A DNA stretch of 31,680 nucleotides, taken from IMG/VR virus record IMGVR_UViG_3300031772_000008; one strand, 5' to 3'. The position numbers and the translations under genes were made by a program. This stretch comes from an uncultured virus (IMG/VR IMGVR_UViG_3300031772_000008). Its lineage: Duplodnaviria > Heunggongvirae > Uroviricota > Caudoviricetes. The notes under the pieces are model-generated. The model was not told where the DNA came from. It did not search any database and saw only the letters and a program-made list of their open reading frames with translations. Below, in pieces: positions 168 through 30,566 of this stretch (positions are counted from its first letter, which is position 1; every line of letters starts with the position of its first letter).

Positions 168-491
168 TTCCCTTCTGAGTTGTTGTATGAACATCGCCAT
201 CGCACTTAACGCGAATGGAAGGCTGACAAAAAATGTCACTTTTTGGTTGCAAATCAAGAGGATAGTGAATAATATCCCGAACCATGTAGAAGAACATACT
301 AAACACAGTATCCCAGACGCGATAGAACCACGTTTATATACTGGGTCTGAGAACTGGTCGTACTTAACCCCCGCTTTCATTCGTATCCAGTCTAACATAC
401 CGAACGGCCCACTCTGTTCTGTATCCGCGAGCATATTCGATATTCTCCAAACAGCTAACGGCATTGTTAATATAGACAGGATGGTGTACAT
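165..491 (-). CDS. Small membrane protein, DUF1360-like
   Basis: LAVWRISNML..GPF..R and CLVCSSTW pattern with hydrophobic helices; TAATG overlap with the upstream gene. Confidence 0.6.
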   Translation of the reverse strand: MYTILSILTMPLAVWRISNMLADTEQSGPFGMLDWIRMKAGVKYDQFSDPVYKRGSIASGILCLVCSSTWFGILFTILLICNQKVTFFVSLPFALSAMAMFIQQLRRE

Positions 492-3400
492 TACATTCCA
501 GACGACTTCAATGCACTATCGTAAATAACCGCAGCCCTTTTTGCTCCTATGCCTTCAATAGATTGTAATCCTTCTACCCCTAATTCAACAATATCGTTCC
601 ATGTTTTGACGCCTTTTTTCAATAATATATCTGAAATATTATCTGTTATTCCTGGCAGACTTTGAAAGTCAGGCAGTTTCAATATATCTATCGATGGTGG
701 CGCAAGTCCTTCCGGTGCATTTGCGGGATTTGTTTTTACAAAATCCAATTCTTTCGGAGCATTAACTTCTACCGGAGGAGGAGTAGAGACTGGTTCGCTA
801 ACTGTCATGTTAGGTACTGGTTGAGTGAACGGAATGAACCATCCAGGATGAGTTGCGATATCAGACCTATGAACATAGAATCTCTCCATTCCTCCACCTG
901 CTCTATATCCGTAGTTTATCTTTGTAGACGCCCCAAATACATTGTGCATTCCACGATTTGGATTCTCGTAAGTGATTAATATCATATCATCGTCTACCAT
1001 TGATTTGGTTTCTTGCATGGTTCGTAAAGGTACAGTAATTTGTTTCTTATTTCCACCACAACTTCTGCATGGCATAGTTTCTACTCCTTCCAATTTCTTG
1101 GTAATATAATTCAATAGTTTTTGTGGCATTTGTATGCCTGTTTCTCTTCGACCTCCGGTATAAAACCTATACGCTACCATTGGTTTTGATAAACGTGCGA
1201 AACACTTTCCGTTACGTGCCATCCTGATCCAGTATTCCCAATCTTCCCACGATGGCATGTTCTCATCAAATCCACCTATCTCATCATGCCACGCTTTAGG
1301 GATTAATGTGGTAATAAGATTCCATATATATAAAGGATTAGCAGGTTGAATACAGGCTCTCTCGCAGTCGTAATCACCCGCATAAGATAAATGCATCGCG
1401 AGACCATCTTCTGGATTATAATCCAAAAGTCTATTACTATTCTTGAGTCTTTCAGCCTCTTCTTGAGTTATAAATGCCTTACTGACGTAATCTGTATAAA
1501 CTCCCATGCCTGTTTCGTTCCATCCAGCAACCATACTCTCAAGCGCATCGGGAACTAAAAAGTTATCATCAGCGTCTAGGAATGTTATCAGTCCAGCACG
1601 CGCTTTCTCAACCCCTCTGTTTCTCGCATAACCTGAGCCTTTCTTTCCAGATGTTTTGATTAATTTCACATAAGGATAGGCTGTTAATATGTCTGGAACA
1701 CCATCGTACGTCCATCCGCCCTCTTCACCTGTATCATCTACCAATATAACTTCCCACTTCCTTAGTGTTTGACTTTCAATACTATCTAAGGCATTAATAG
1801 TATGAGGCTTATGCCCCGGCCCTACAGGAATTATGACACTCACTATGGGGTCATCGTATTGTCTTACTGGATGAGTAAGTCTATTGTTCATGGGTGTTGC
1901 AACACATAGAAATGGGTGAAGCTGGTCTTTCGTGGAAGGATGTAACTCTCTCCAGTTTATTTCTCTATATGCTCTGTCTCCACTCACCCTACCGCTCTTG
2001 TATGAATAAATAAACAACGGCGCTTCTGTGACCCTTTTACCCTTAAAACCGTATAGTCCTGCTCTTAACCAGAACTCAGCATCTTCCGATCCGGCTCCTT
2101 TTGGAGCGTATCTACTGCGATATCCTCCCAATCTTTTCCACATTTCTTTCCTGAACATACTGCATGTCGGGATTTGATTAATCCCTCCGGGATAAACCAT
2201 GTTATCAAAATTGTACTCAGGAGGCCATTGGCTTACGGTTTGTTTCCCATCTGGTTCGACTGCCAAGAGTCCTGTATAAGCGATCCCTAGTAGAGGGTCT
2301 GCATCTAACGCTTCTTTACATGCTCTTACCCATTCAGTATCTATTCTATCGTCTGCGTCTAAACATACGATATAATCACCAGTCGCCATAGATATTCCTG
2401 TGTTTCTTGCTACGGCTACACCTGCATTATTCTGATAGTGGTATTTAACATCATACGCTGAGACTACTTGCTTAGTGTCATCTGTGCTTCCATCATCTAC
2501 TACGATAATTTCTTTTACTGGAACAGTTTGGGCTAAGACACTTTCGATTGCTCTACCCACTAAATCAGAGTAGTTGTAACACGGGATAATAACACTTACA
2601 TTATTATTTTTGGGTTGCATCGCCAATTTATAGACTTCGGATAGTTTCTCACATGCTTTATCCCATGTGAATTTTTTAGCCAATTCATTAGCGTTCTTTC
2701 CTAATGTATCTCTGTACTTCAGACAGTATCTTAATCCTTCTGCTAAGTTTTCTATATTCCCTGGTTGCGCTAAATACCCACTCACGCCGTGTTGTATGAA
2801 ATCGTTATTTCCTCCATAAGCATATCCCAATACAGGAGTTCCCGCTGCTAGAGATTCAAGAGTTAGTATTCCAGCAGTTTCTTTCACGGCAGATATTGTT
2901 ACTTCTGCTCTTTGTATTACTTCCTTCATCTTATCGTGGGATAGTAATCCAGTTATTCTTACATTGGACGGTGCATCCGATAATGCGAATGTGCATAAGA
3001 ATAACTTATCAGGGAAAAGTCTCGCTAATTCATTAACATACGCAGGATTGCATACATCTCTTATTCTGTTTTTTGCATACGCTAAGATATATCCATCATT
3101 CGGTAGAGTATGTTGCCATTCATCCCAATCCACTCCATGAGGAACGACGGTTGGATCAACTCTTACATCTCTTTGTATACTCTCAGCTACCCAATTACTT
3201 GGTACTGTTATTTGATCTGCGTGTCTTATTGAGTCAATTACTGCTAAATTTGCTTTCCATTCCTGAGCTAACATGGGTAAGTCCGCGGTCCAATAAACGC
3301 CATGAAGGTGAACAGCACAAGGTATACCACGTGGATATTTACTCCCCATTCCTGCATGAACAGCTAATACATCAAAATTGTCATCGCTTCTTGGAACAAA

Positions 3401-3511
3401 TTCAATTCCATATTTATTCCCATGCTCGAACCATTTCCTAACAACGGTGTGTATCCCGCTTTCTCCGTTCTTTAGATCGTCTACGTGAGGAACACTTCTG
3501 ACTTTAATCAC
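491..3511 (-). CDS. Multidomain glycosyltransferase: GT4 (GT-B) + GT2 + GT2 + C-terminal CxxC and helix-hairpin-helix region
   Basis: GT4 motif ETAGILTLESLAAGTPV; two GT2 starts VSVIIPCYN..VVDDGSTD..CLDADD and VSVIIPV..LVDD..FLDADD, each with an ED motif (SEDAEFW, WEDWEYW); C-terminal LPGIT and IEGIGAKRA HhH motifs. Confidence 0.9.
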   Translation of the reverse strand: MIKVRSVPHVDDLKNGESGIHTVVRKWFEHGNKYGIEFVPRSDDNFDVLAVHAGMGSKYPRGIPCAVHLHGVYWTADLPMLAQEWKANLAVIDSIRHADQITVPSNWVAESIQRDVRVDPTVVPHGVDWDEWQHTLPNDGYILAYAKNRIRDVCNPAYVNELARLFPDKLFLCTFALSDAPSNVRITGLLSHDKMKEVIQRAEVTISAVKETAGILTLESLAAGTPVLGYAYGGNNDFIQHGVSGYLAQPGNIENLAEGLRYCLKYRDTLGKNANELAKKFTWDKACEKLSEVYKLAMQPKNNNVSVIIPCYNYSDLVGRAIESVLAQTVPVKEIIVVDDGSTDDTKQVVSAYDVKYHYQNNAGVAVARNTGISMATGDYIVCLDADDRIDTEWVRACKEALDADPLLGIAYTGLLAVEPDGKQTVSQWPPEYNFDNMVYPGGINQIPTCSMFRKEMWKRLGGYRSRYAPKGAGSEDAEFWLRAGLYGFKGKRVTEAPLFIYSYKSGRVSGDRAYREINWRELHPSTKDQLHPFLCVATPMNNRLTHPVRQYDDPIVSVIIPVGPGHKPHTINALDSIESQTLRKWEVILVDDTGEEGGWTYDGVPDILTAYPYVKLIKTSGKKGSGYARNRGVEKARAGLITFLDADDNFLVPDALESMVAGWNETGMGVYTDYVSKAFITQEEAERLKNSNRLLDYNPEDGLAMHLSYAGDYDCERACIQPANPLYIWNLITTLIPKAWHDEIGGFDENMPSWEDWEYWIRMARNGKCFARLSKPMVAYRFYTGGRRETGIQMPQKLLNYITKKLEGVETMPCRSCGGNKKQITVPLRTMQETKSMVDDDMILITYENPNRGMHNVFGASTKINYGYRAGGGMERFYVHRSDIATHPGWFIPFTQPVPNMTVSEPVSTPPPVEVNAPKELDFVKTNPANAPEGLAPPSIDILKLPDFQSLPGITDNISDILLKKGVKTWNDIVELGVEGLQSIEGIGAKRAAVIYDSALKSSGM

Positions 3512-13127: not shown

Positions 13128-14768
13128 TCAATCGCTCAATCTTATAATACGTGCTCTCTCTGCGGGAATGAAGGTCAATATTAATGCGTCCGCGTAGTTG
13201 GGAGACCTCTTGAGTTTTTCCCGCATATCATCTTTGGACATCATGTGAATCTTTCCACGGTCATCTATGCGATATGTAGGGGTCATTAATTCTTCCATCA
13301 GCATAGGTTCAGGAGGGAGCATGGCTTCATCTTCCCTTAACCACTCTCTACATGCCCACCACATCTGGTCTCTTATCTGAAAAAACTCTCCCAGTTCACT
13401 TACAATAGAAGGACTTGGCTTACCAGCCGCTTTCACAGATATACATCTCAATCCTTTCACTAATTTACTTACTTGAGGGGCGACTGAAGAACCATACCCA
13501 GTCCCGTCTACTAAAAGAATATCTACATTGTAGATACGGCATAACTCTGCCGCCCTCTCTCCACTTACTGTAGGATCAACTCCCTGCCATATCCTTTCAA
13601 CTCTTGGTACAAAGTTTCCATATCTCAATACAGGTGCGTTAAAGTCTTGCCCGAACTCAGCCACATCAAGACCCAATCTAGGTCTGATAGAGGGAGGTCT
13701 CTCACCATTCTCAGCCACATAATTATCCCAACGTTCTCTTGCCAGTCTTATCCACTCTGCGTTGATTAATTGATTCTCGCCTTGTTCTGGATACTGTCCT
13801 AAAACCATGTATGAGAAAGCAGATTCCATGATAACTCTCATCCCTTCTTTGAGAGGTGGATAGGGTATTCCCTGTAAACTATTAGCGGTCGTTCCAACAA
13901 GGAAATCAGGTACTTCGAACTTACGTGAAGCGGTCGGGTTCTCACCTTCAACAGCCGGTCGTGTCCATTGGTTTATTCTACGCACGACTGTTTCTCTTGT
14001 GACTGCACCAGGGATAATATCGTCTCCCGATAATACATTGGGATGTCTTAGAGCAGATAGATTAATAAATTTGGCTTTCTGGTCTATCTCCATTTGGTAG
14101 ATTGGACCTTGTTGCGATTTGGGGTTGAACATAACTAATAGTCTAGCCATACCACCGGACATGCAAGATTCGATACCTTCGTATACCTCTGGTGGAACAG
14201 CATCGCCTTCGTCTACAAGAAACAAAAGGTGAGGTGCGTGCTTACCAGAGAATTTACTTACTCTTTCTGAACTTGTTCCCGTCATAGGAATAGTAACGCC
14301 ACTGACAAATGATTCATCGTGGCGTTTTATTTCGAGTTCCTTGATAGTGAATTTTTTGAATAGGTCTGGGTGTAGACGAACTGCCCGCATCATAGCACCC
14401 CACAATATATTCTTCAAGTTCTCTAACGGAGGGGCTGCGGTCATAAATACCTTAGCGTCATCATAGACAGAAAACCACCATAATGCAATATCTGCGCTCG
14501 AATACGACTTACCTACTGCGTTCCCACTCTTAGCAACTGTCACTGGATTATCTACAACAGACCTCATCAGGTCTTCGACATCACTATAATAACTATGTCC
14601 TAATACTTCGTTCCCAAATCTAACGGGATCACGCTGATACTCCGCAAGTAAAGATAAGTTGGCGCGCTTCTTCGCCTCAGCCCAAGCCTCTCGGTACATG
14701 GTCTGCGCCCAGGTTGGGAGGTTACTTATATCTACTTGTTGGTCTAATGTAGTGGTCATATATATCAC
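13128..14768 (-). CDS. terL: Terminase large subunit
   Basis: Walker A AKSGNAVGKS, Walker B LFLVDEG, motif III MFNP, RNase H-like LGLDVAEFGQD, VDGTGYG, SPNYADAL. Confidence 0.92.
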   Translation of the reverse strand: MIYMTTTLDQQVDISNLPTWAQTMYREAWAEAKKRANLSLLAEYQRDPVRFGNEVLGHSYYSDVEDLMRSVVDNPVTVAKSGNAVGKSYSSADIALWWFSVYDDAKVFMTAAPPLENLKNILWGAMMRAVRLHPDLFKKFTIKELEIKRHDESFVSGVTIPMTGTSSERVSKFSGKHAPHLLFLVDEGDAVPPEVYEGIESCMSGGMARLLVMFNPKSQQGPIYQMEIDQKAKFINLSALRHPNVLSGDDIIPGAVTRETVVRRINQWTRPAVEGENPTASRKFEVPDFLVGTTANSLQGIPYPPLKEGMRVIMESAFSYMVLGQYPEQGENQLINAEWIRLARERWDNYVAENGERPPSIRPRLGLDVAEFGQDFNAPVLRYGNFVPRVERIWQGVDPTVSGERAAELCRIYNVDILLVDGTGYGSSVAPQVSKLVKGLRCISVKAAGKPSPSIVSELGEFFQIRDQMWWACREWLREDEAMLPPEPMLMEELMTPTYRIDDRGKIHMMSKDDMREKLKRSPNYADALILTFIPAERARIIRLSD

Positions 14769-24979: not shown

Positions 24980-25207
24980 ATGGACCCACAGTTAATCCAA
25001 TCCAGGACTGTTATAATCGCTGACCTGAACAAACTGAACGTAGAGTTATCTATTAAGGCAGCGATTGATTATTACAGGACTCTGTATGGCGAGCCTCGAA
25101 GAGTGTGGATAAATCCAAAAGATTGTGATGATAAAATACAAGAGGTAGATGGGTTCAAAATAGAGAGGCGCGGTGGTTGCTGTCGAGGCAAAGTTATGAT
25201 TCTATGA
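24980..25207 (+). CDS. Hypothetical protein
   Basis: AAGGAG SD before ATG 24980; ATGA overlap with the next gene. Confidence 0.7.
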   Translation: MDPQLIQSRTVIIADLNKLNVELSIKAAIDYYRTLYGEPRRVWINPKDCDDKIQEVDGFKIERRGGCCRGKVMIL

Positions 25208-26202
25208 GAGAAGATACGCTTCCTTCTGAGTTCGCTGAATTGTCTGGTAGAGTAAACTTTGTCCACCGCAAAGGTCAGTACGAATATTCTTCAAGTTGCC
25301 CTAGGTGTGGGGGTGGGATACATTCTGATGGAGAATTTTCTGACAGGTTCGTTATGTTTTTACCAGGTAGAAAAGGGATGGACTTTGCCTTTGGGTTCTG
25401 TAGAAAATGCGGGACGAAATGGTGGCCTGGGCAGAGAGATGGACGAGAGGTAGACCCTGCTACACTCGCTTTATTAGAAAGACAAGCCAAAGAAGCAGAG
25501 GAAAGACACAAGGAAGAACGCAGAGTTAAATTAGCACAGTTTAGTACAACTGAATTGTGGAATGAGCTACACGATAGACTAGGGATAGATGAAAGGAAGT
25601 GGTGGACTGACAATGGCATCCCCTCAGAGTGGCAAGATTACCTTAAGCTTGGTTACACACCAGATAAAATTTACCAAAGTATTAATGGGCTACTTCACAG
25701 CCCAGCTTACACCATCCCATACTTTATTTACGGCTTTGTATTTCGGACTATACAATATAGGTTATGTGATCCTGATAATCCCAAGGATAGGTACAGGTTT
25801 GAGTCTGACCTTGGAACTTCATACTATATGACAACACCGTCATTAAAGATAGGCGACCAAGTTATTATTTGCGAGGGGGCGAAGAAAGGAATGGTCACTA
25901 AGATATGGGGGGAAAATAAGACTACTGTATTAGCAGTACCCAGTAAAACAGACTGGAGAAGTTGTGGAATATTAGAAGCAGTAAAGGATTGTGGAAGAGT
26001 GTATATTTTATTCGACCCAGACTGTTATGAACAGCCACCTGATTCAAATAGCTGGACACCTCAACCAATATTATTTGCTAAAGAAATAGGAAAGAACGCA
26101 AGGGTGATGGAGTGCCCAGTAAAGGTAGATGATGCGTTTATATATTATGGAATGGATCAGAATGAATGGAACGCTTTGAAGAAACAAGCAGTGAAGTTAT
26201 GA
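25204..26202 (+). CDS. DNA primase-like protein (zinc finger + TOPRIM)
   Basis: CPRCGG..DRF..FCRKC zinc finger; LGY, TIPY, IQYR, RYR; IICEGAKK and ILFDPD TOPRIM motifs. Confidence 0.75.
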   Translation: MREDTLPSEFAELSGRVNFVHRKGQYEYSSSCPRCGGGIHSDGEFSDRFVMFLPGRKGMDFAFGFCRKCGTKWWPGQRDGREVDPATLALLERQAKEAEERHKEERRVKLAQFSTTELWNELHDRLGIDERKWWTDNGIPSEWQDYLKLGYTPDKIYQSINGLLHSPAYTIPYFIYGFVFRTIQYRLCDPDNPKDRYRFESDLGTSYYMTTPSLKIGDQVIICEGAKKGMVTKIWGENKTTVLAVPSKTDWRSCGILEAVKDCGRVYILFDPDCYEQPPDSNSWTPQPILFAKEIGKNARVMECPVKVDDAFIYYGMDQNEWNALKKQAVKL

Positions 26203-26381: not shown

Positions 26382-26823
26382 TTACATAAAACCGATTTAC
26401 GGTAAACATCCTAGTAAAAAAATGATGTTCAAAGCAGAATGTGGAGGCTGCGGAAAACTATTAAGACGAAACGCGAGGAATAAAATAGGTTATATATGTT
26501 CGGAGTGCAGTCCCAGAATAAGACATGATAACGATTCAAGTGTTTGTTATGATTGTCCATTTGTAATAGATTGTACTGCTAGAGTTCAGTTAGGGTTATG
26601 GCTTCGTTGTGAAACCCCAGATATTGCAGACTTAGAAAGGCTTAATTTTGCAGGAGGATTAGACGATGAAGGAGTTCGACGAGAGTTGGAAAGTACGATG
26701 GTCGGGAGAGGGGATCGGAAGGTTCTGGAAAAGGCAGTTAGCCAAAGCGCGTCGAAGATATATCAAAGCTGTGTTGAGGGGGGAGAAAGGAAAATACCCA
26801 TTCAGATACGAGACAGAATGTAA
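26374..26823 (+). CDS. Cys-rich putative zinc-binding protein
   Basis: CGGC, CSEC, CYDC..C..C motifs; its C-terminal third overlaps the next gene. Confidence 0.6.
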   Translation: MIDYIKPIYGKHPSKKMMFKAECGGCGKLLRRNARNKIGYICSECSPRIRHDNDSSVCYDCPFVIDCTARVQLGLWLRCETPDIADLERLNFAGGLDDEGVRRELESTMVGRGDRKVLEKAVSQSASKIYQSCVEGGERKIPIQIRDRM

Positions 26824-26839
26824 CTGGAAAAATCACTAG
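26666..26839 (+). CDS. Small basic protein (57 aa), not in the ORF track
   Basis: AGGAGG SD 8 nt before ATG 26666; MKEFDESWKVRWSGEGIGRFWKRQLAKARRRYIKAVLRGEKGKYPFRYETECNWKNH; its stop overlaps the SD of the next gene. Confidence 0.7.
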   Translation: MKEFDESWKVRWSGEGIGRFWKRQLAKARRRYIKAVLRGEKGKYPFRYETECNWKNH

Positions 26840-26847
26840 GAGATGTT

Positions 26848-27033
26848 ATGGAAGATATTAAGTTTTCTTATTGCGTAAATTGCTACGAGCGTCAGGATTT
26901 TATTCTTGTGAACGGTGTGTGGATTTGTAAAACTTGCAATAAACCAATGCAAAGAGCCACGGAAAGAATAGATAAATCATTGACTAATACAAGCAGTTCA
27001 GGTACAATTGTAACAGGAGGCAACTATGGCTAA
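26848..27033 (+). CDS. Small zinc-ribbon protein
   Basis: AGGAG SD; CVNC..WICKTC. Confidence 0.65.
   Translation: MEDIKFSYCVNCYERQDFILVNGVWICKTCNKPMQRATERIDKSLTNTSSSGTIVTGGNYG
26980..27008 (+). promoter_or_regulatory. Sigma70-type promoter TTGACT-N17-TACAAT
   Basis: TTGACT 26980-26985, TACAAT 27003-27008. Confidence 0.75.
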
Positions 27034-27064
27034 AAAAAAGAAGCCATGCAAGACAAAGAAATGA
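27026..27064 (+). CDS. 12-aa lysine-rich micropeptide MAKKKKPCKTKK
   Basis: AGGAGG-5nt-ATG directly after the promoter; TGA at 27062-27064. Confidence 0.6.
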   Translation: MAKKKKPCKTKK

Positions 27065-27068
27065 TCTA

Positions 27069-27198
27069 TGGGCGGCGGTGTGGTTGGGAACACACAGGCA
27101 GAACCGTAATGTATGAACAATACTAATCGTCGCATTGTCTAAATAAAGGGAACACTTCTGGTGAAAAGCCCACATCAGGTTCGAATCCTGACCGCCCA
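27069..27198 (+). ncRNA. tRNA-like RNA (130 nt) with acceptor stem, D-arm and T-arm but an ~80-nt middle region
   Basis: TGGGCGG/CCGCCCA 7-bp stem; GTGTG-GTTGGGAA-CACAC D-like arm after a 2-nt linker; TCAGG-TTCGAAT-CCTGA T-arm adjoining the acceptor strand; no canonical anticodon arm. Confidence 0.75.
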
Positions 27199-27204
27199 TT
27201 TTAT

Positions 27205-27451
27205 GCGCTCTATTTGTTTGGCGCTAGGCGAAGTAATCCTATATTACAACCAGACAAAGGTAAGGGACTAGCAACCGAGCGCGATGGGACTGCTTCGCTA
27301 TTACATAGGGATGTAACACGCATAGGAATAGCCCAACTGAAAGCACGAATGTGCCGTAGGTTGCGTGGCAAGGTGTCCTGCCAAAATTAAAACTATCGGG
27401 GTATAGGAGCAGGTGAAATGCCCCGAGCCTTGCCAAAGACTAACTTACCTG
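27205..27451 (+). ncRNA. Candidate structured RNA (~250 nt) with pseudoknots
   Basis: GCGCTC/GAGCGC, TTTGTTTGG/CCAGACAAA, GCGAAGTAATCCTAT/ATGGGACTGCTTCGC, TTACAT/ATGTAA, ACGCA/TGCGT, TGGCAAGG/CCTTGCCA, TCGGGGTAT/ATGCCCCGA, CAGGTGA/TTACCTG. Confidence 0.65.
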
Positions 27452-27459
27452 AAAAAGAT

Positions 27460-27476
27460 TTGACAAAAAATGTCAA
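27460..27476. promoter_or_regulatory. Palindrome TTGACA-N5-TGTCAA (operator-like; each arm is a -35 consensus)
   Basis: Perfect inverted repeat 30 nt upstream of ATG 27506. Confidence 0.55.
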
Positions 27477-27505
27477 TTTATGGTTACAAATAAAAAAGGA
27501 GACCA

Positions 27506-27688
27506 ATGAGTAAACTAAGTATAGCCGCATTTTTATCTTTATTTCCAAACCTCAGTAAATCTTCAAAACATGATTGGGTGTTCAGTCATAAAAATATAAA
27601 ACCGAGTGGAATTACCAAACACAAACCAAAGCCGGGGCGCAATCATCCTGTTAAGGGATACGATCAAGAAAATCATAAATGGATTTAA
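27506..27688 (+). CDS. Small basic hypothetical protein
   Basis: AAGGAG SD; 60-aa Lys/His-rich ORF. Confidence 0.6.
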   Translation: MSKLSIAAFLSLFPNLSKSSKHDWVFSHKNIKPSGITKHKPKPGRNHPVKGYDQENHKWI

Positions 27689-27700
27689 AAAAGGAGATAA

Positions 27701-28354
27701 ATGGAAACAAATGAAAAGTTAGATCAGTTAGCAGAATTTCAGTCTCAGCGCGACTCGATTGAAATCGAAAAACGTGCGTTACTTGACGAGGTTAAAATAC
27801 CATCCGAAGTCGAAGAAATTGTTGCTGAGGGCATGAAGAAAATGAGTGAGGTGGAAGAAACATTTTATCCAACCTTAGAATTACTCAAAGAAAAGACCGA
27901 AAAGAAACTGGCATTGATTGTCGTCCCTGACGAAATAAAAACTGCGCTTGCAGAAATTGATAGACAACGCGCCGAGATTATAGAGCATCAAACAAAAAAT
28001 GAGGCAGAAATAGCACAATGTATCCGTGCGGTCAAAGCTGAAATACAAGCCAATGTAGAGGCGAAAACAAAAGATATTTATGCTGCTATTGCCCAGCGTA
28101 AGGCTGAGATCGAAGTTGAGTTTTCCGGTAAGGCTGAAGCAGTTGATGAGAACATTAAGAAACTGACCGAGGAAATTAAATCTGACGTATTAACTATGGG
28201 TGTTTCAGTAAAAGGGAAATACTACCAGGGTATTTATGTAAAAGGACGCGTGACTTGGGATACTAGTAAAATGGATGGATATGCAGTTGGTCATCCAGAG
28301 GTTCTATTCATGCGCAAAGAAGGCGATCCATCTTGCACCATCAGGAAAATATAA
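27701..28354 (+). CDS. Coiled-coil protein, Mu Gam / Siphovirus gp157-like
   Basis: AAGGAG SD; long coiled coil then KGRVTWDTSKMDGYAVGHPEVLFMRKEGDPSCTIR beta-rich tail. Confidence 0.5.
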   Translation: METNEKLDQLAEFQSQRDSIEIEKRALLDEVKIPSEVEEIVAEGMKKMSEVEETFYPTLELLKEKTEKKLALIVVPDEIKTALAEIDRQRAEIIEHQTKNEAEIAQCIRAVKAEIQANVEAKTKDIYAAIAQRKAEIEVEFSGKAEAVDENIKKLTEEIKSDVLTMGVSVKGKYYQGIYVKGRVTWDTSKMDGYAVGHPEVLFMRKEGDPSCTIRKI

Positions 28355-28365
28355 AAAGGAGATAA

Positions 28366-28458
28366 ATGATATTCATTACAGTATCTACGATCAGCGTTGT
28401 TTTAGTTCTTTTTGTGGGGCTGTGCTGTTTACTGGCTTTACTTGCACCCAGTCAGTAA
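28366..28458 (+). CDS. 30-aa hydrophobic single-helix peptide, not in the ORF track
   Basis: AAGGAG-4nt-ATG; MIFITVSTISVVLVLFVGLCCLLALLAPSQ. Confidence 0.65.
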   Translation: MIFITVSTISVVLVLFVGLCCLLALLAPSQ

Positions 28459-28469
28459 TGTGATATAAT
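28442..28469 (+). promoter_or_regulatory. Sigma70-type promoter TTGCAC-N16-TATAAT with extended TG
   Basis: TTGCAC 28442-28447, TGA-TATAAT 28461-28469; predicted start near 28476. Confidence 0.75.
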
Positions 28470-28477
28470 ATGGATGA

Positions 28478-28940
28478 TTCTAGGTACAGATAGTGTTTTT
28501 ATTTACAGCTATAACAGCCTCGGCTGATAGCAAGTGCGCCCGAACACTGTCTCTACCTAGAAGTAAAAACATGTTGGGCGCACTTATATTATCAATTCCT
28601 TGCTCATAGGCGGAGCGGATAGGCGAGGATACATACGAACTGAGAGGAAACTCTCTAGGCAGAAACTGCTCCAACTGTTACTGTCGTAGACAACGACTGG
28701 TTTAACCTCAAGACATTTTATATGCGCCTCGGACAAAGCAGGGAACAGCGAGGTTCGTCCCTAATAGGGATTAGCGAAAAGATGGTTGAACCGACTCCCA
28801 CTCTGAAAGGAGTGAGAAACTCAAGTTCTTTCTTGCTTGGTTTATTTTTTTTTTGAACTTGTTTTTCGAAGGAGTCGCCAGGGCTGCCCTGGGAGAACTG
28901 TTTAAGTTCACCAGAGAAAGGTTAACGAATACGGTTAACA
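28478..28940 (+). ncRNA. Large highly structured RNA or leader (~460 nt) upstream of the replication genes
   Basis: More than a dozen helices, including TTCTAGGTA/TACCTAGAA, AGATAGTGTTT/GAACACTGTCT, AAGTGCGCCC/GGGCGCACTT, GAGAG-GAAA-CTCTC, CACTCT-GAAA-GGAGTG, CGACTCC/GGAGTCG, CAAGTTC/GAACTTG and CCAGGG/CCCTGG; no plus-strand ORF in the track. Confidence 0.7.
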
Positions 28941-29010
28941 AACAATATAGTATACTTAATGCTACTAGATAGCAAGGGCAGTTCTATTCCCTAATACGGA
29001 AGGAGAATGT

Positions 29011-29568
29011 ATGACACAAACTATGACACGAGGAATCCGATTGGCGATTACTGAAACGCTTGCCAAGTATGGAATTGATAATGTAGTCCTGGATATGGAA
29101 CTCACAAAAGTTATAACTGATATTATCCAAACGAAACAACCCAAACGAACTTTAGAACAATTGAATAAGGAAACAGAGGATGCGTTTTTTGCATCTTTAG
29201 CGAGTAAATCATCTGGATACGAACAATTTCCAGAGGATATAAGACCTTATGCAGAAAAGTTCTGTACGTTATATAAGATAAAACCACCTATTAGACCTCA
29301 CAAACAAAGAGAACGTAGTGAGTTTTCATTCTGGATAACATCTTTGCGTGAATTAATGGATGCCTGTGGTGAGTATGGTAGTGATCTATTAATTGAAATG
29401 CGCAAGGAATACGAGGGAGAGATGCAGGGAGGTCTTGCACCTTTTCGTGTGACAAGTCCTGCTAGTTTAGTGAAGTCTGCGCGTGGTAAAGCTGGTATGA
29501 AACGTCAGGGAATAAGTGGAACTATAAAGCAAGGTAAGCCTAAGTATCATTCTCTTCTGGATGTATGA
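29011..29568 (+). CDS. Hypothetical protein, possibly replication initiator or helicase loader
   Basis: AAGGAG SD; ATGA-coupled to the DnaB-like gene; function inferred from position only. Confidence 0.5.
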   Translation: MTQTMTRGIRLAITETLAKYGIDNVVLDMELTKVITDIIQTKQPKRTLEQLNKETEDAFFASLASKSSGYEQFPEDIRPYAEKFCTLYKIKPPIRPHKQRERSEFSFWITSLRELMDACGEYGSDLLIEMRKEYEGEMQGGLAPFRVTSPASLVKSARGKAGMKRQGISGTIKQGKPKYHSLLDV

Positions 29569-30566
29569 TGACTGATCCATTAGATATTATCTTTTCACCT
29601 GCACAAGTAGCAAGAGCCGGTACAGCATATATAGAAGCGCGTGCCTCGAATAAAACCGAAGGGATACCGTTCTATCTTCCTGCGATGGACGAGAAACTAC
29701 TTCCTTTATTACCAGGTGAGTTACTAACAATCATTGGAAGACCTGGTGCAGGAAAGAGCGCGGTTTCGATGTACTGGGCGAGATCAAGGGCAAAGTGGTT
29801 GCAAGACAGAAATATAGACGACCGTGTTGTGGTATTTTTAACTCTGGAGCAATCAGTGGAAGAACTCTACGCTTTCCACGTTGCCTCAGAAACAGGTATA
29901 CCAGTAGATATTATGGCTAGAGGGCATCTTGATAAAGACCAGATAGAATTAGTAAGAAACTATGGGGTAAGGCGTTCTACGTTAAATTTATGGCTTATGG
30001 GACACTCAATTGAAAGACGCAAGAAAAGACCTCGTATTAATCTTACCAATATATCCGAATCTTTAACGCGTGTAGAAAATTGGGAAGAGCAGGGTAAAAG
30101 AGACCTTAAAATAGACATGATATTTGTGGATTATTTGCAGAGAATTCCGTTTGAAGGAAGTCCAGAAAGTAAGGTTATTGGTATAGATGAGAACCTTAAT
30201 AAGTTAAAAGATATGGCGTTGATGTTTGCGTGTCCAGTTGTTTGTGGAGTTCAAGCGAGAAGAGAAGTGGATGATAGAGACCCTGCTATTCCAGAACTAG
30301 CAGATGGGCAATGGTCTTCGAGCGTAGAACAAACCAGCGATAAGATTCTTTCAGTAGTGCGCCCGATAAAGTATAAGAAAGAGGGTGAAACATTTGGTAA
30401 AATGATAGTGCAGGGCAGAAATCAAATGTTACTATGTATATTAAAACAAAGACTGGGGGACAGCCCGTGGTTGATCTGGACAAGCTTTGACCCTCAGTAC
30501 AATAGAATGATAGATGCTGAGGTAAGAGATTATAATCTAACCGAGGAGGCTTGGAGTGATAAATGA
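29565..30566 (+). CDS. dnaB: DnaB-like replicative helicase (C-terminal RecA-type domain only)
   Basis: GELLTIIGRPGAGKS Walker A, FLTLEQS, IFVDYLQRI, GVQARRE, SSSVEQTSD, LKQRLG. Confidence 0.9.
   Translation: MMTDPLDIIFSPAQVARAGTAYIEARASNKTEGIPFYLPAMDEKLLPLLPGELLTIIGRPGAGKSAVSMYWARSRAKWLQDRNIDDRVVVFLTLEQSVEELYAFHVASETGIPVDIMARGHLDKDQIELVRNYGVRRSTLNLWLMGHSIERRKKRPRINLTNISESLTRVENWEEQGKRDLKIDMIFVDYLQRIPFEGSPESKVIGIDENLNKLKDMALMFACPVVCGVQARREVDDRDPAIPELADGQWSSSVEQTSDKILSVVRPIKYKKEGETFGKMIVQGRNQMLLCILKQRLGDSPWLIWTSFDPQYNRMIDAEVRDYNLTEEAWSDK

Follow-up and report, generated by a model that had tools for sequence, protein, structure and literature searches.

A conserved, covarying RNA ahead of an initiator-like gene and a DnaB-type helicase gene in uncultured phages

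The locus and the RNA family

We analyzed a 31,680-nt stretch of DNA (hereafter, the window) from an uncultured virus of the Caudoviricetes (IMG/VR record IMGVR_UViG_3300031772_000008), a phage-like contig that occurs in sediment metagenomes. A structured RNA of about 330 nt was found at approximately 28593–28925 on the plus strand, upstream of a small open reading frame (ORF) and a gene encoding a DnaB-type helicase. The RNA has a covarying fold, a fixed gene context, and no counterpart in Rfam; on the compared sequences, it almost certainly constitutes an RNA family. The original prediction, made from the letters of the window, had placed here a densely structured, undescribed element acting at the RNA level ahead of an initiator-like gene and a helicase, and covariation among homologs together with the lack of an Rfam match supports this. 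The setting of the RNA is defined by the following genes, identified by domain and library scans of the window proteins:

13128–14768, minus strand: large terminase
25177–26202: relative of DnaG-type primases
29011–29568, plus strand: 185-aa ORF resembling the C-terminal part of O-like replication initiators
29565–30566, plus strand: DnaB-type helicase (DnaB_C, 3e-28)

Between position 28463, where a 31-codon ORF ends, and the ATG at 29011, no plus-strand ORF of at least 50 aa was present; thus, the gene-free gap reported earlier is real. Scanning of the plus strand from 26800 to 29300 revealed no terminator-like site, and a promoter-like sequence, TTAACG-18-TATAGT, was detected by scan between the conserved RNA and the downstream ORF of the window.

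The window had no blastn match in a phage record collection, and a single-protein locus search in viral contigs found no relatives. Relatives of the helicase numbered 159 at E ≤ 0.001; 49 of them were aligned (A1), and 80 metagenome and 10 viral loci were retrieved. An nhmmer search with region 28364–29010 as the query matched the contig of the window itself (L001) as well as L002, a 99% relative, and gave weak matches at loci L056 (2.6e-7), L061 (1.4e-6), and L055 (2.2e-5), all upstream of helicases only 38–41% identical to that of the window. A profile search added L058, which is identical to L087. Two patterns composed of invariant strings selected 153 viral loci, two of which (L146 and L215) were true members and the rest mostly chance; with a stricter pattern, the yield was 1 viral locus and 21 genome-contig loci, three of these 21 being true (L247, L246, and L259, the last identical to L055). 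Loci L211, L227, and L249 were rejected on inspection because they lie in coding sequence. A covariance model of the 5′ half (R1), run over 95 sources, recovered the known members at E ≤ 3e-8 and placed L070 and L077 near 0.1; L070 was confirmed by an 11-row profile (1.3e-12), and L077 (E 0.12) is a candidate member.

The family comprised 11 distinct sequences, that of the window and 10 further ones, from metagenome, viral, and metagenome-assembled genome (MAG) contigs. The G+C content of the 5′ half varied from 0.48 to 0.64 across members, and the helicases of the phages carrying homologs were only 38–44% identical. The MAG labels of L246, L247, and L259 (two archaeal, one CPR) reflect the binning of short contigs, and no host was deduced from them. 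Each lineage had the RNA on the coding strand, with a small ORF of 133–185 aa directly downstream (0–90 nt away, same strand) and a DnaB_C helicase after it. This order was constant in the lineages found; whether homologs always precede replication genes was a check suggested with the original prediction. Stops occurred in all six frames in nine of ten members, with one open frame in L146.

Rfam 15 (4227 models, including GOLLD, ROOL, OLE, HEARO, group I and II introns, RNase P, tmRNA, and riboswitches) gave no match at the gathering threshold over the whole window, so none of the known families named in the original prediction removes the novelty. At E ≤ 10, the only match within 27000–29200 was hsp17 at 28969–29013 (17.5 bits; threshold 45), and at E ≤ 1, seven other members had no match on the RNA. 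By eye, there were resemblances to conserved parts of RNase P and to the "R" element of group I introns, but Rfam did not bear them out. A self-splicing intron in a split initiator gene was also rejected: the downstream ORFs have their own Shine–Dalgarno (SD) sequence and a conserved N-terminus, MxQTxxR, and no intron model matched. The literature searched, including excerpts of PMC10690425 and of the Minerva preprint 10.64898/2026.09.22.753630, contains no description of the RNA; catalogue supplements may list it among thousands of unnamed candidates. We regard the element as a previously undescribed RNA family of a familiar type, a structured RNA encoded in cis with the genes on which it acts, and there is an appreciable chance that it is more remote from known types.

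Fold and covariation of the RNA

Comparison of the homologs gave the following elements, all on the plus strand:

28597–28629 (+): hairpin H1, stem 28597–28607/28619–28629, conserved 11-nt loop AGRCGGNNCGG (28608–28618)
28612–28672 (+): pseudoknot PK1, H1 loop 28612–28618 (GGAGCGG) with 28666–28672 (CUGCUCC)
28672–28681 and 28694–28700 (+): conserved unpaired strings CAACUGUUAC and CGACKGG, invariant or nearly invariant columns in alignments A5 and A10
28699–28792 (+): long-range helix P-LR, 28699–28707 (GGUUUAACC) with 28784–28792 (GGUUGAACC), enclosing H7, H6, and H8
28727–28753 (+): hairpin H6, CCUCG/CGAGG, conserved 17-nt loop GACAAAGCNGRGAAMAG (28732–28748)
28758–28770 (+): hairpin H8, UCCCU-AAU-AGGGA, putative primary binding site
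28793–28876 (+): helix M, GACUCC (28793–28798)/GGAGUC (28871–28876), closing a variable multiloop
28799–28814 and 28822–28861 (+): multiloop content, hairpin hpA and an A/U-rich hairpin with a T run at 28841–28854
28878–28892 (+): hairpin H5, CCAGGG-CUG-CCCUGG, followed by the conserved GAGAAYUGU
28895–28909 (+): 3′ hairpin, GAACU/AGUUC

Pairs of H1, H7, H6, and PK1 were counted in A10, the R1 alignment of nine distinct sequences (24 pairs, 195 cells). Paired cells made up 90.8%, against 62.2% in shuffled alignments and 36–47% with slid partners; both sides changed in 21 of the 24 pairs, and none of 500 shuffles reached any of the five measures. All six modelled pairs of H1 changed on both sides (91.7% of cells paired), as did all six of H6 (94.4%). 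The 7-bp PK1, a helix absent from model R1, had both-side changes in six of seven pairs (92.9% paired) and was also picked by RNAalifold and by the single-sequence fold of the core; its 3′ strand lies directly 5′ of CAACUGUUAC. Its variants included GGCGCGG:CCGCGCC, GGUUCGG:CUGAACC, GCGAGAG:CUCUCGC, and GGAGUGA:UCACUCC, and in L058 and L246 it was recognized by eye in a shifted register (GAGCC:GGCUC and GAUCC:GGAUC).

The 3′ half could not be aligned across lineages with MAFFT, and a second covariance model (3′ half, three sequences) found only those three and the window at E 0.39, the 3′ half being too variable in sequence. For this reason, P-LR, M, and H5 were evaluated with an anchor-based script rather than with the pair-count tool. 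P-LR, in which the bases after CGACN pair with those directly before the second CGAC, formed 44 of 45 pairs with its own partner in nine sequences, compared to a mean of 3.24 of 5 with the partners of other lineages; it was exposed by RNAalifold on three sequences and was also present in the window-only fold. M, on which P-LR is stacked, formed 40 of 40 pairs in eight sequences (cross-lineage mean 3.7 of 5) and was doubly compensated in L247 (GACUUUC/GAAAGUC). The stems of H5 differ (CCAGGG, CUGGG, CUAUG, CUACGG, CUAGUG, CUAUGC) yet pair in eight of the nine scripted sequences, with one A-C mismatch in L061. A 3′ hairpin with differing stems was seen by eye in the window, L247, L058, L246, L215, L061, and L055, and H8 occupied the same place in eight of ten lineages. 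The core-only fold of the window reproduced PK1, P-LR, H6, H8, M, H5, and the 3′ hairpin.

In L002 (766–1100), the 5′ strand of M is window-like and the 3′ strand is L247-like. Both halves of the L247-type compensated helix occur in sequencing run X4, but on separate short contigs. The broken M of L002 suggests recombination or chimeric (two-strain) assembly inside the variable multiloop.

Three further candidates of this region were rejected. RNAalifold proposed a closing helix, CAAUU/AAUUG, which is invariant, is confined to three sequences, and is in competition with the 3′ hairpin; P-LR took the place of a small GG..CC hairpin located behind CGACNGG. An upstream mini-ORF in the multiloop was discarded because its peptide similarity follows from RNA conservation, and the covariation of H5 changes its residues.

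The anatomy given in the original prediction was partly retained. H1 (TCCTTGCT/GGCGAGGA), H6 (CCTCG/CGAGG), H8 (TCCCT/AGGGA), M (CGACTCC/GGAGTCG), H5 (CCAGGG/CCCTGG), and the 3′ hairpin (GAACT/AGTTC) were all supported by comparison, while PK1 and P-LR, the true pseudoknot and the true long-range helix, had been missed. One of its two GAAA hairpins (28642–28655) is a lineage-specific insertion, and the other, GCAG-AAA-CTGC, is not supported, as it uses the strand that forms the covarying PK1. GTCGT/ACGAC is confined to the window group. The long-range pairings CTGGT/ACCAG and TTAACCT/AGGTTAA compete with the covarying GGTTTAACC/GGTTGAACC (28699–28707/28784–28792); by eye, they are not kept in L061 and L055, and each loses one uncompensated pair in L247.

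Folding energy and strand signals were less informative. The minimum-energy fold of 28470–28960 includes most of the hairpins listed originally, and the z-score of the whole stretch was −4.65 on each strand, with none of 100 shuffles as good. Since this value is equal on both strands and the core alone has only −2.12, thermodynamics is weak evidence. GNRA loops and G-U pairs had been taken as signs of function at the RNA level: the GNRA loops indeed occur on the plus strand only, but the excess of G-U over A-C cells (12 versus 7) is weak evidence of strand. The GNRA tetraloops and the gene orientation are better strand evidence than the G-U pairs.

The upstream cassette and neighboring genes

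Similarity among the homologs starts at about 28593 and ends near 28925. Two features of the window precede it:

28442–28469 (+): promoter-like site read by eye, TTGCAC (28442–28447), 16-nt spacer, extended −10 TGaTATAAT ending at 28469
28478–28592 (+): strain-specific 5′ hairpin domain, outside the conserved RNA

The 5′ domain contains a 20-nt inverted repeat (28478–28497/28543–28562, 90% complementary) forming an interrupted stem, an inner hairpin (28508–28531), and an exact 10-nt crossing complement (28532–28541/28576–28585); its fold z-score is −3.81. The stem, the inner hairpin, and the crossing complement described originally are thus present in the sequence, but they belong to a strain-specific cassette and not to the family RNA. 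The domain is absent from the two closest relatives, L002 and L247. In L002, 458 other bases (308–765) replace window positions 28472–28592 and encode a 108-aa winged-helix (wHTH) ORF with weak HTH_36, HTH_5, and DnaD-like matches, an ORF that L247 shares. In contigs of runs X2, X4, and X5, 461 other letters (the wHTH form) connect 28471 with 28593, and in run X4 depth was found only on this 461-nt form. A cassette polymorphism within one phage population was observed, with either the 121-nt hairpin or the 461-nt wHTH segment between identical junctions, and both forms co-occur in the same sediment runs. The prominent stem of the original prediction is a swappable cassette abutting the RNA, and because of it the 5′ end of the RNA had been placed about 115 nt too far upstream. 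In strains without the alternative wHTH gene, the domain may have a protective role at the 5′ end of the transcript.

The "own promoter" of the original prediction was likewise retained in part. The promoter-like site is a candidate by sequence, read by eye and not listed by a consensus promoter scan. The window and the alternative form are identical up to 28471, so that the site is kept upstream of both cassettes and is not specific to the RNA. Nor is a private promoter a trait of the family, because the RNA of L146 and L055 adjoins the upstream ORF, starting at most 3 nt from its end. In L003, L008, and L007, the contig starts 553–580 nt ahead of the helicase, which is where the small ORF starts or slightly before it; the assemblies seem to be interrupted at the RNA region, as would be expected of a region that varies between strains. 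In L070, repeats CAATTAGGGGAAAACCCCTAA and their variants with a promoter-like TTGCAA-17-TAAGTT (3147–3204) are located upstream of the RNA copy; L070 also showed a weak sub-threshold likeness to IMES-2 (25.7 bits versus 54.7).

Downstream of the RNA, the 185-aa protein of the window had no Pfam, PHROG, or PDB match. Its Atlas features placed it near phage clusters, one of them with Phg_2220_C at 0.92, which is a lead only; the L058 protein gave nothing. The small ORFs had 9–24% identity to that of the window, except for L247 (80%), and share the N-terminus MxQTxxRxI and a W-containing motif. In the 296-aa protein P0125, which matches PHROG "replication initiation / O-like" families, an HTH_36 domain is fused to a relative of the C-terminal 140 residues of the window protein. 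Locus L005, with a helicase 99.6% identical, has a long fused ORF like P0125 and no RNA; L006 (helicase 69% identical) has an unrelated 162-aa ORF, with neither the RNA nor the small-ORF family.

Several features outside the RNA were also recorded. The region 27068–27200 (+) is tRNA-like and has acceptor, D, and T arms; its T-loop reads GGTTCGAATCC, and its anticodon loop carries an insert of 52 nt. ARAGORN reported it as Val-GAC only with introns and a lowered threshold, and the default run and Rfam gave nothing. A second non-coding gap, 27200–27505, the "RNA at 27205" of the original prediction, had no Rfam match at E ≤ 10 and, by repeat scan, no sequence shared with 28478–28592. Three small genes in succession (27493, 27688, and 28353) are each preceded by the same ribosome-binding string of 16 nt, AAAAAGGAGATAAATG, one of the copies being 88% identical. 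A protein of 1006 aa, encoded by the window at 491–3511 (minus strand), combines GT4 and two GT2 glycosyltransferase domains with a helix-hairpin-helix at its C-terminus and is unusual for a phage contig.

Possible roles of the RNA and known systems

A look-alike of H8 is located at the translation start of the downstream gene:

28988–29013 (+): H8 copy UCCCUAAUACGGA (28988–29000) overlapping the SD GGAAGGAG (28998–29005), with the ATG at 29011

H8 (UCCCUAAUAGGGA) and the copy, which lies 11 nt before the ATG, are identical at 12 of 13 positions, and no other plus-strand site in the 31.7-kb window comes within one mismatch. In L247, GCCCUAACAGGGC (H8) and GCCCUAACAGGGG (copy) both read GCCCUAACAGGG(C/G), three positions having changed in parallel, and in L058 H8 is CUCUAACAGAG and the start-site copy CUCUAACGCAG. 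L056 and L061 carry the loop AAUGAAUUUU in H8, in one of the multiloop hairpins, and in the hairpin of the start codon; the stems differ but pair. The window copy overlaps the SD, and in L056 and L061 the AUG is in the hairpin loop.

We favor, tentatively, the interpretation that the RNA is a structured leader or intercistronic RNA, with a protein of the operon binding at H8 and the look-alike limiting the translation of that protein. The RNA would be part of the replication-operon transcript, immediately 5′ of the initiator-like ORF and the DnaB-type helicase, and would serve in cis as a platform for protein binding. H8, within the folded RNA, would be bound by a phage protein, in the simplest case the one encoded directly downstream; with H8 filled, this protein would bind the look-alike over the SD or start codon and switch translation off. 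Feedback of this kind through molecular mimicry, known from ribosomal-protein operons and from gene 32 of phage T4, is a possible mechanism rather than a probable one. The large number of unpaired bases that are conserved suggests a further task of the core beyond regulation, for example, scaffolding a replication ribonucleoprotein.

A number of observations weigh against this interpretation. The mimic is clear in only about five of ten lineages (the window with its near-copy L002, L247, L058, L056, and L061); the likeness is weak in L055 and L246, and no look-alike was found at the start site in L215, L146, and L070. Start-site regions and look-alikes were no more stable than shuffles in three of the four lineages folded; by themselves, the copies are not stable hairpins, which fits the need for a bound factor and proves nothing. 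Being palindromic at the DNA level, H8 and its copy could also be recognized by a DNA-binding protein, although the variable stems and fixed asymmetric loop in L056 and L061 point to recognition of an RNA hairpin rather than of a palindrome. Two natural variants weaken M (3 of 7 pairs in L002; an uncompensated G28874T in run X5). The downstream proteins are not consistently basic (pI 5.6–9.2), and domain and library scans detected no recognizable RNA-binding domain in them. The RNA was present in only 8 of 52 helicase-family rows (7 distinct loci) with at least 1000 nt upstream, and one further row was doubtful; with L005 and L006, this distribution indicates that the RNA and the small ORF are an optional module travelling together before the helicase. 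There was no RNA run among the 24 sequencing runs listed with the locus. Finally, a 330-nt core with many conserved unpaired bases far exceeds the need of a simple operator.

A role at the replication origin is rather unlikely but merits the most attention among the alternatives. The region would be the origin itself, and the transcript a primer, a persistent R-loop, or a tether for the initiator C-domain protein and the helicase. In lambda-type phages, the origin is placed between the DNA-binding and the helicase-recruiting parts of the initiator. The order in L002 and L247 (wHTH ORF with weak HTH_36 and DnaD-like matches, RNA, initiator C-domain-like ORF) corresponds to this placement; P0125 and L005, with both initiator parts fused, lack the RNA, and the window form has the RNA and no wHTH gene. 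An A/T-rich run (28841–28868), A/U-rich stretches after H5 in five lineages, and the three iteron-like repeats directly upstream of the RNA in L070 also fit. However, the T run belongs to the variable part and is absent outside the window group, the close relatives L005 and L006 lack the RNA, and a simple primer leaves the conserved tertiary-looking core and the ribosome-binding-site look-alike unexplained. Instead of a lambda-type array (at least three closely spaced iterons plus an A/T-rich stretch), the window has two copies 230 nt apart. Since the window strain has the RNA but no DNA-binding half, a more specific form of this idea is that origin specificity in a novel type of initiator comes from the RNA: the nascent, folded RNA, staying at its template, would recruit the C-domain protein and thereby the helicase via H8. 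The RNA would then replace the DNA-binding domain that is fused in P0125 and L005 or encoded by a separate gene in L002 and L247, and the look-alike would set the protein-to-RNA ratio. We hold this specific proposal to be unlikely.

A riboswitch-like leader, with the core as an aptamer for a small molecule or ion (e.g., a nucleotide pool signal) and the H8 copy as the switching sequence, is improbable. The constant place of the RNA ahead of one type of gene, in the same orientation and with no intervening terminator, agrees with it, as do the many invariant unpaired bases, the pseudoknot, and conservation over a G+C content of 0.48–0.64, which probably means conservation across hosts. Nevertheless, with its about 330 nt and at least eight helices, the RNA is larger than any riboswitch aptamer known to us, and it is intercistronic rather than 5′-terminal in several lineages. 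The copy repeats the loop and both strands, more than strand exchange requires, and no conserved alternative SD-sequestering helix was found. An expression platform was not evident either, given the lack of a terminator in 26800–29300 and start regions no better than shuffles in three of four lineages.

Similarly doubtful is a stand-alone trans-acting RNA, either a ribozyme or an RNA-only multimer with intermolecular PK1, as in ROOL, GOLLD, and OLE. Its complexity and conserved loops are compatible with such a role, the 7-bp PK1 may be intermolecular (covariation is blind to the difference), and a promoter-like sequence lies between the RNA and the ORF of the window. Homo-oligomeric ornate phage-linked RNAs have been described in a Nature 2025 article (PMC12286853), which we count in favor of it. 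Against it stand the tight linkage to one gene family, the failure to find a terminator or defined 3′ end, and the lack of similarity to any ribozyme or ornate RNA model. A purely DNA-level element (palindromic sites and an unwinding region with incidental RNA folds) or a hidden small gene is very improbable and, for the core, the DNA-level reading is largely refuted: equal z-scores on both strands, the palindromic H8 and copy, and G-U cells barely above A-C cells (12 versus 7) are outweighed by compensatory changes in 21 of 24 pairs including the pseudoknot, covariation of a helix spanning 90 nt, stems varying around a fixed asymmetric loop in L056, L061, and L055, GNRA loops on one strand only, and stops in all frames in nine of ten members.

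At the least, a new RNA family occupies a gap that genome annotation leaves empty. Large conserved pseudoknotted RNAs are rare and have repeatedly proved to be ribozymes, sensors, or ribonucleoprotein scaffolds. The RNA is tied to the helicase-loading step of phage DNA replication, for which we know of no structured RNA partner, and the 13-nt hairpin and its copy at the ribosome-binding site form a testable pair. If the RNA recruits or regulates the initiator-like protein, it would represent an RNA layer in phage replication initiation and a compact natural RNA–protein module.

Among known systems, riboswitches and other cis-regulatory leaders resemble this RNA in lying consistently ahead of a single type of gene and in having a pseudoknot and unpaired bases that are conserved; unlike them, it matches no known class, is much larger, has no terminator platform found, and is often intercistronic. 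Origin transcripts that prime or activate replication include ColE1 RNA II, the non-coding origin transcript of lactococcal phage c2, and the origin R-loops of T4. They resemble the RNA of the window as long folded non-coding RNAs beside replication genes with an A/T-rich stretch nearby, but, in contrast to it, they are not known to be conserved as a covarying fold across distant replicons. GOLLD, ROOL, and OLE are similarly large, with many helices and covarying long-range contacts, and occur in phage DNA. They are roughly 580–800 nt long, compared to about 330 nt here, and are linked to tRNA clusters; the present RNA differs in matching none of their models and in its linkage to the small ORF and the helicase.

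Autogenous translational operators mimicking a primary RNA site are known from ribosomal-protein operon leaders, T4 gene 32 and RegA, and the MS2 coat protein/replicase hairpin. The gene 32 case is described in PMC10690425. As in these operators, the hairpin at the SD or start codon looks like one within a structured RNA, and the element lies in cis to the gene that would be controlled; as in MS2, the start codon of L056 and L061 is in the hairpin loop. What distinguishes the RNA described here is that the presumed primary site is in the same transcript, inside a 330-nt pseudoknotted RNA, and that the candidate regulated genes are replication genes.

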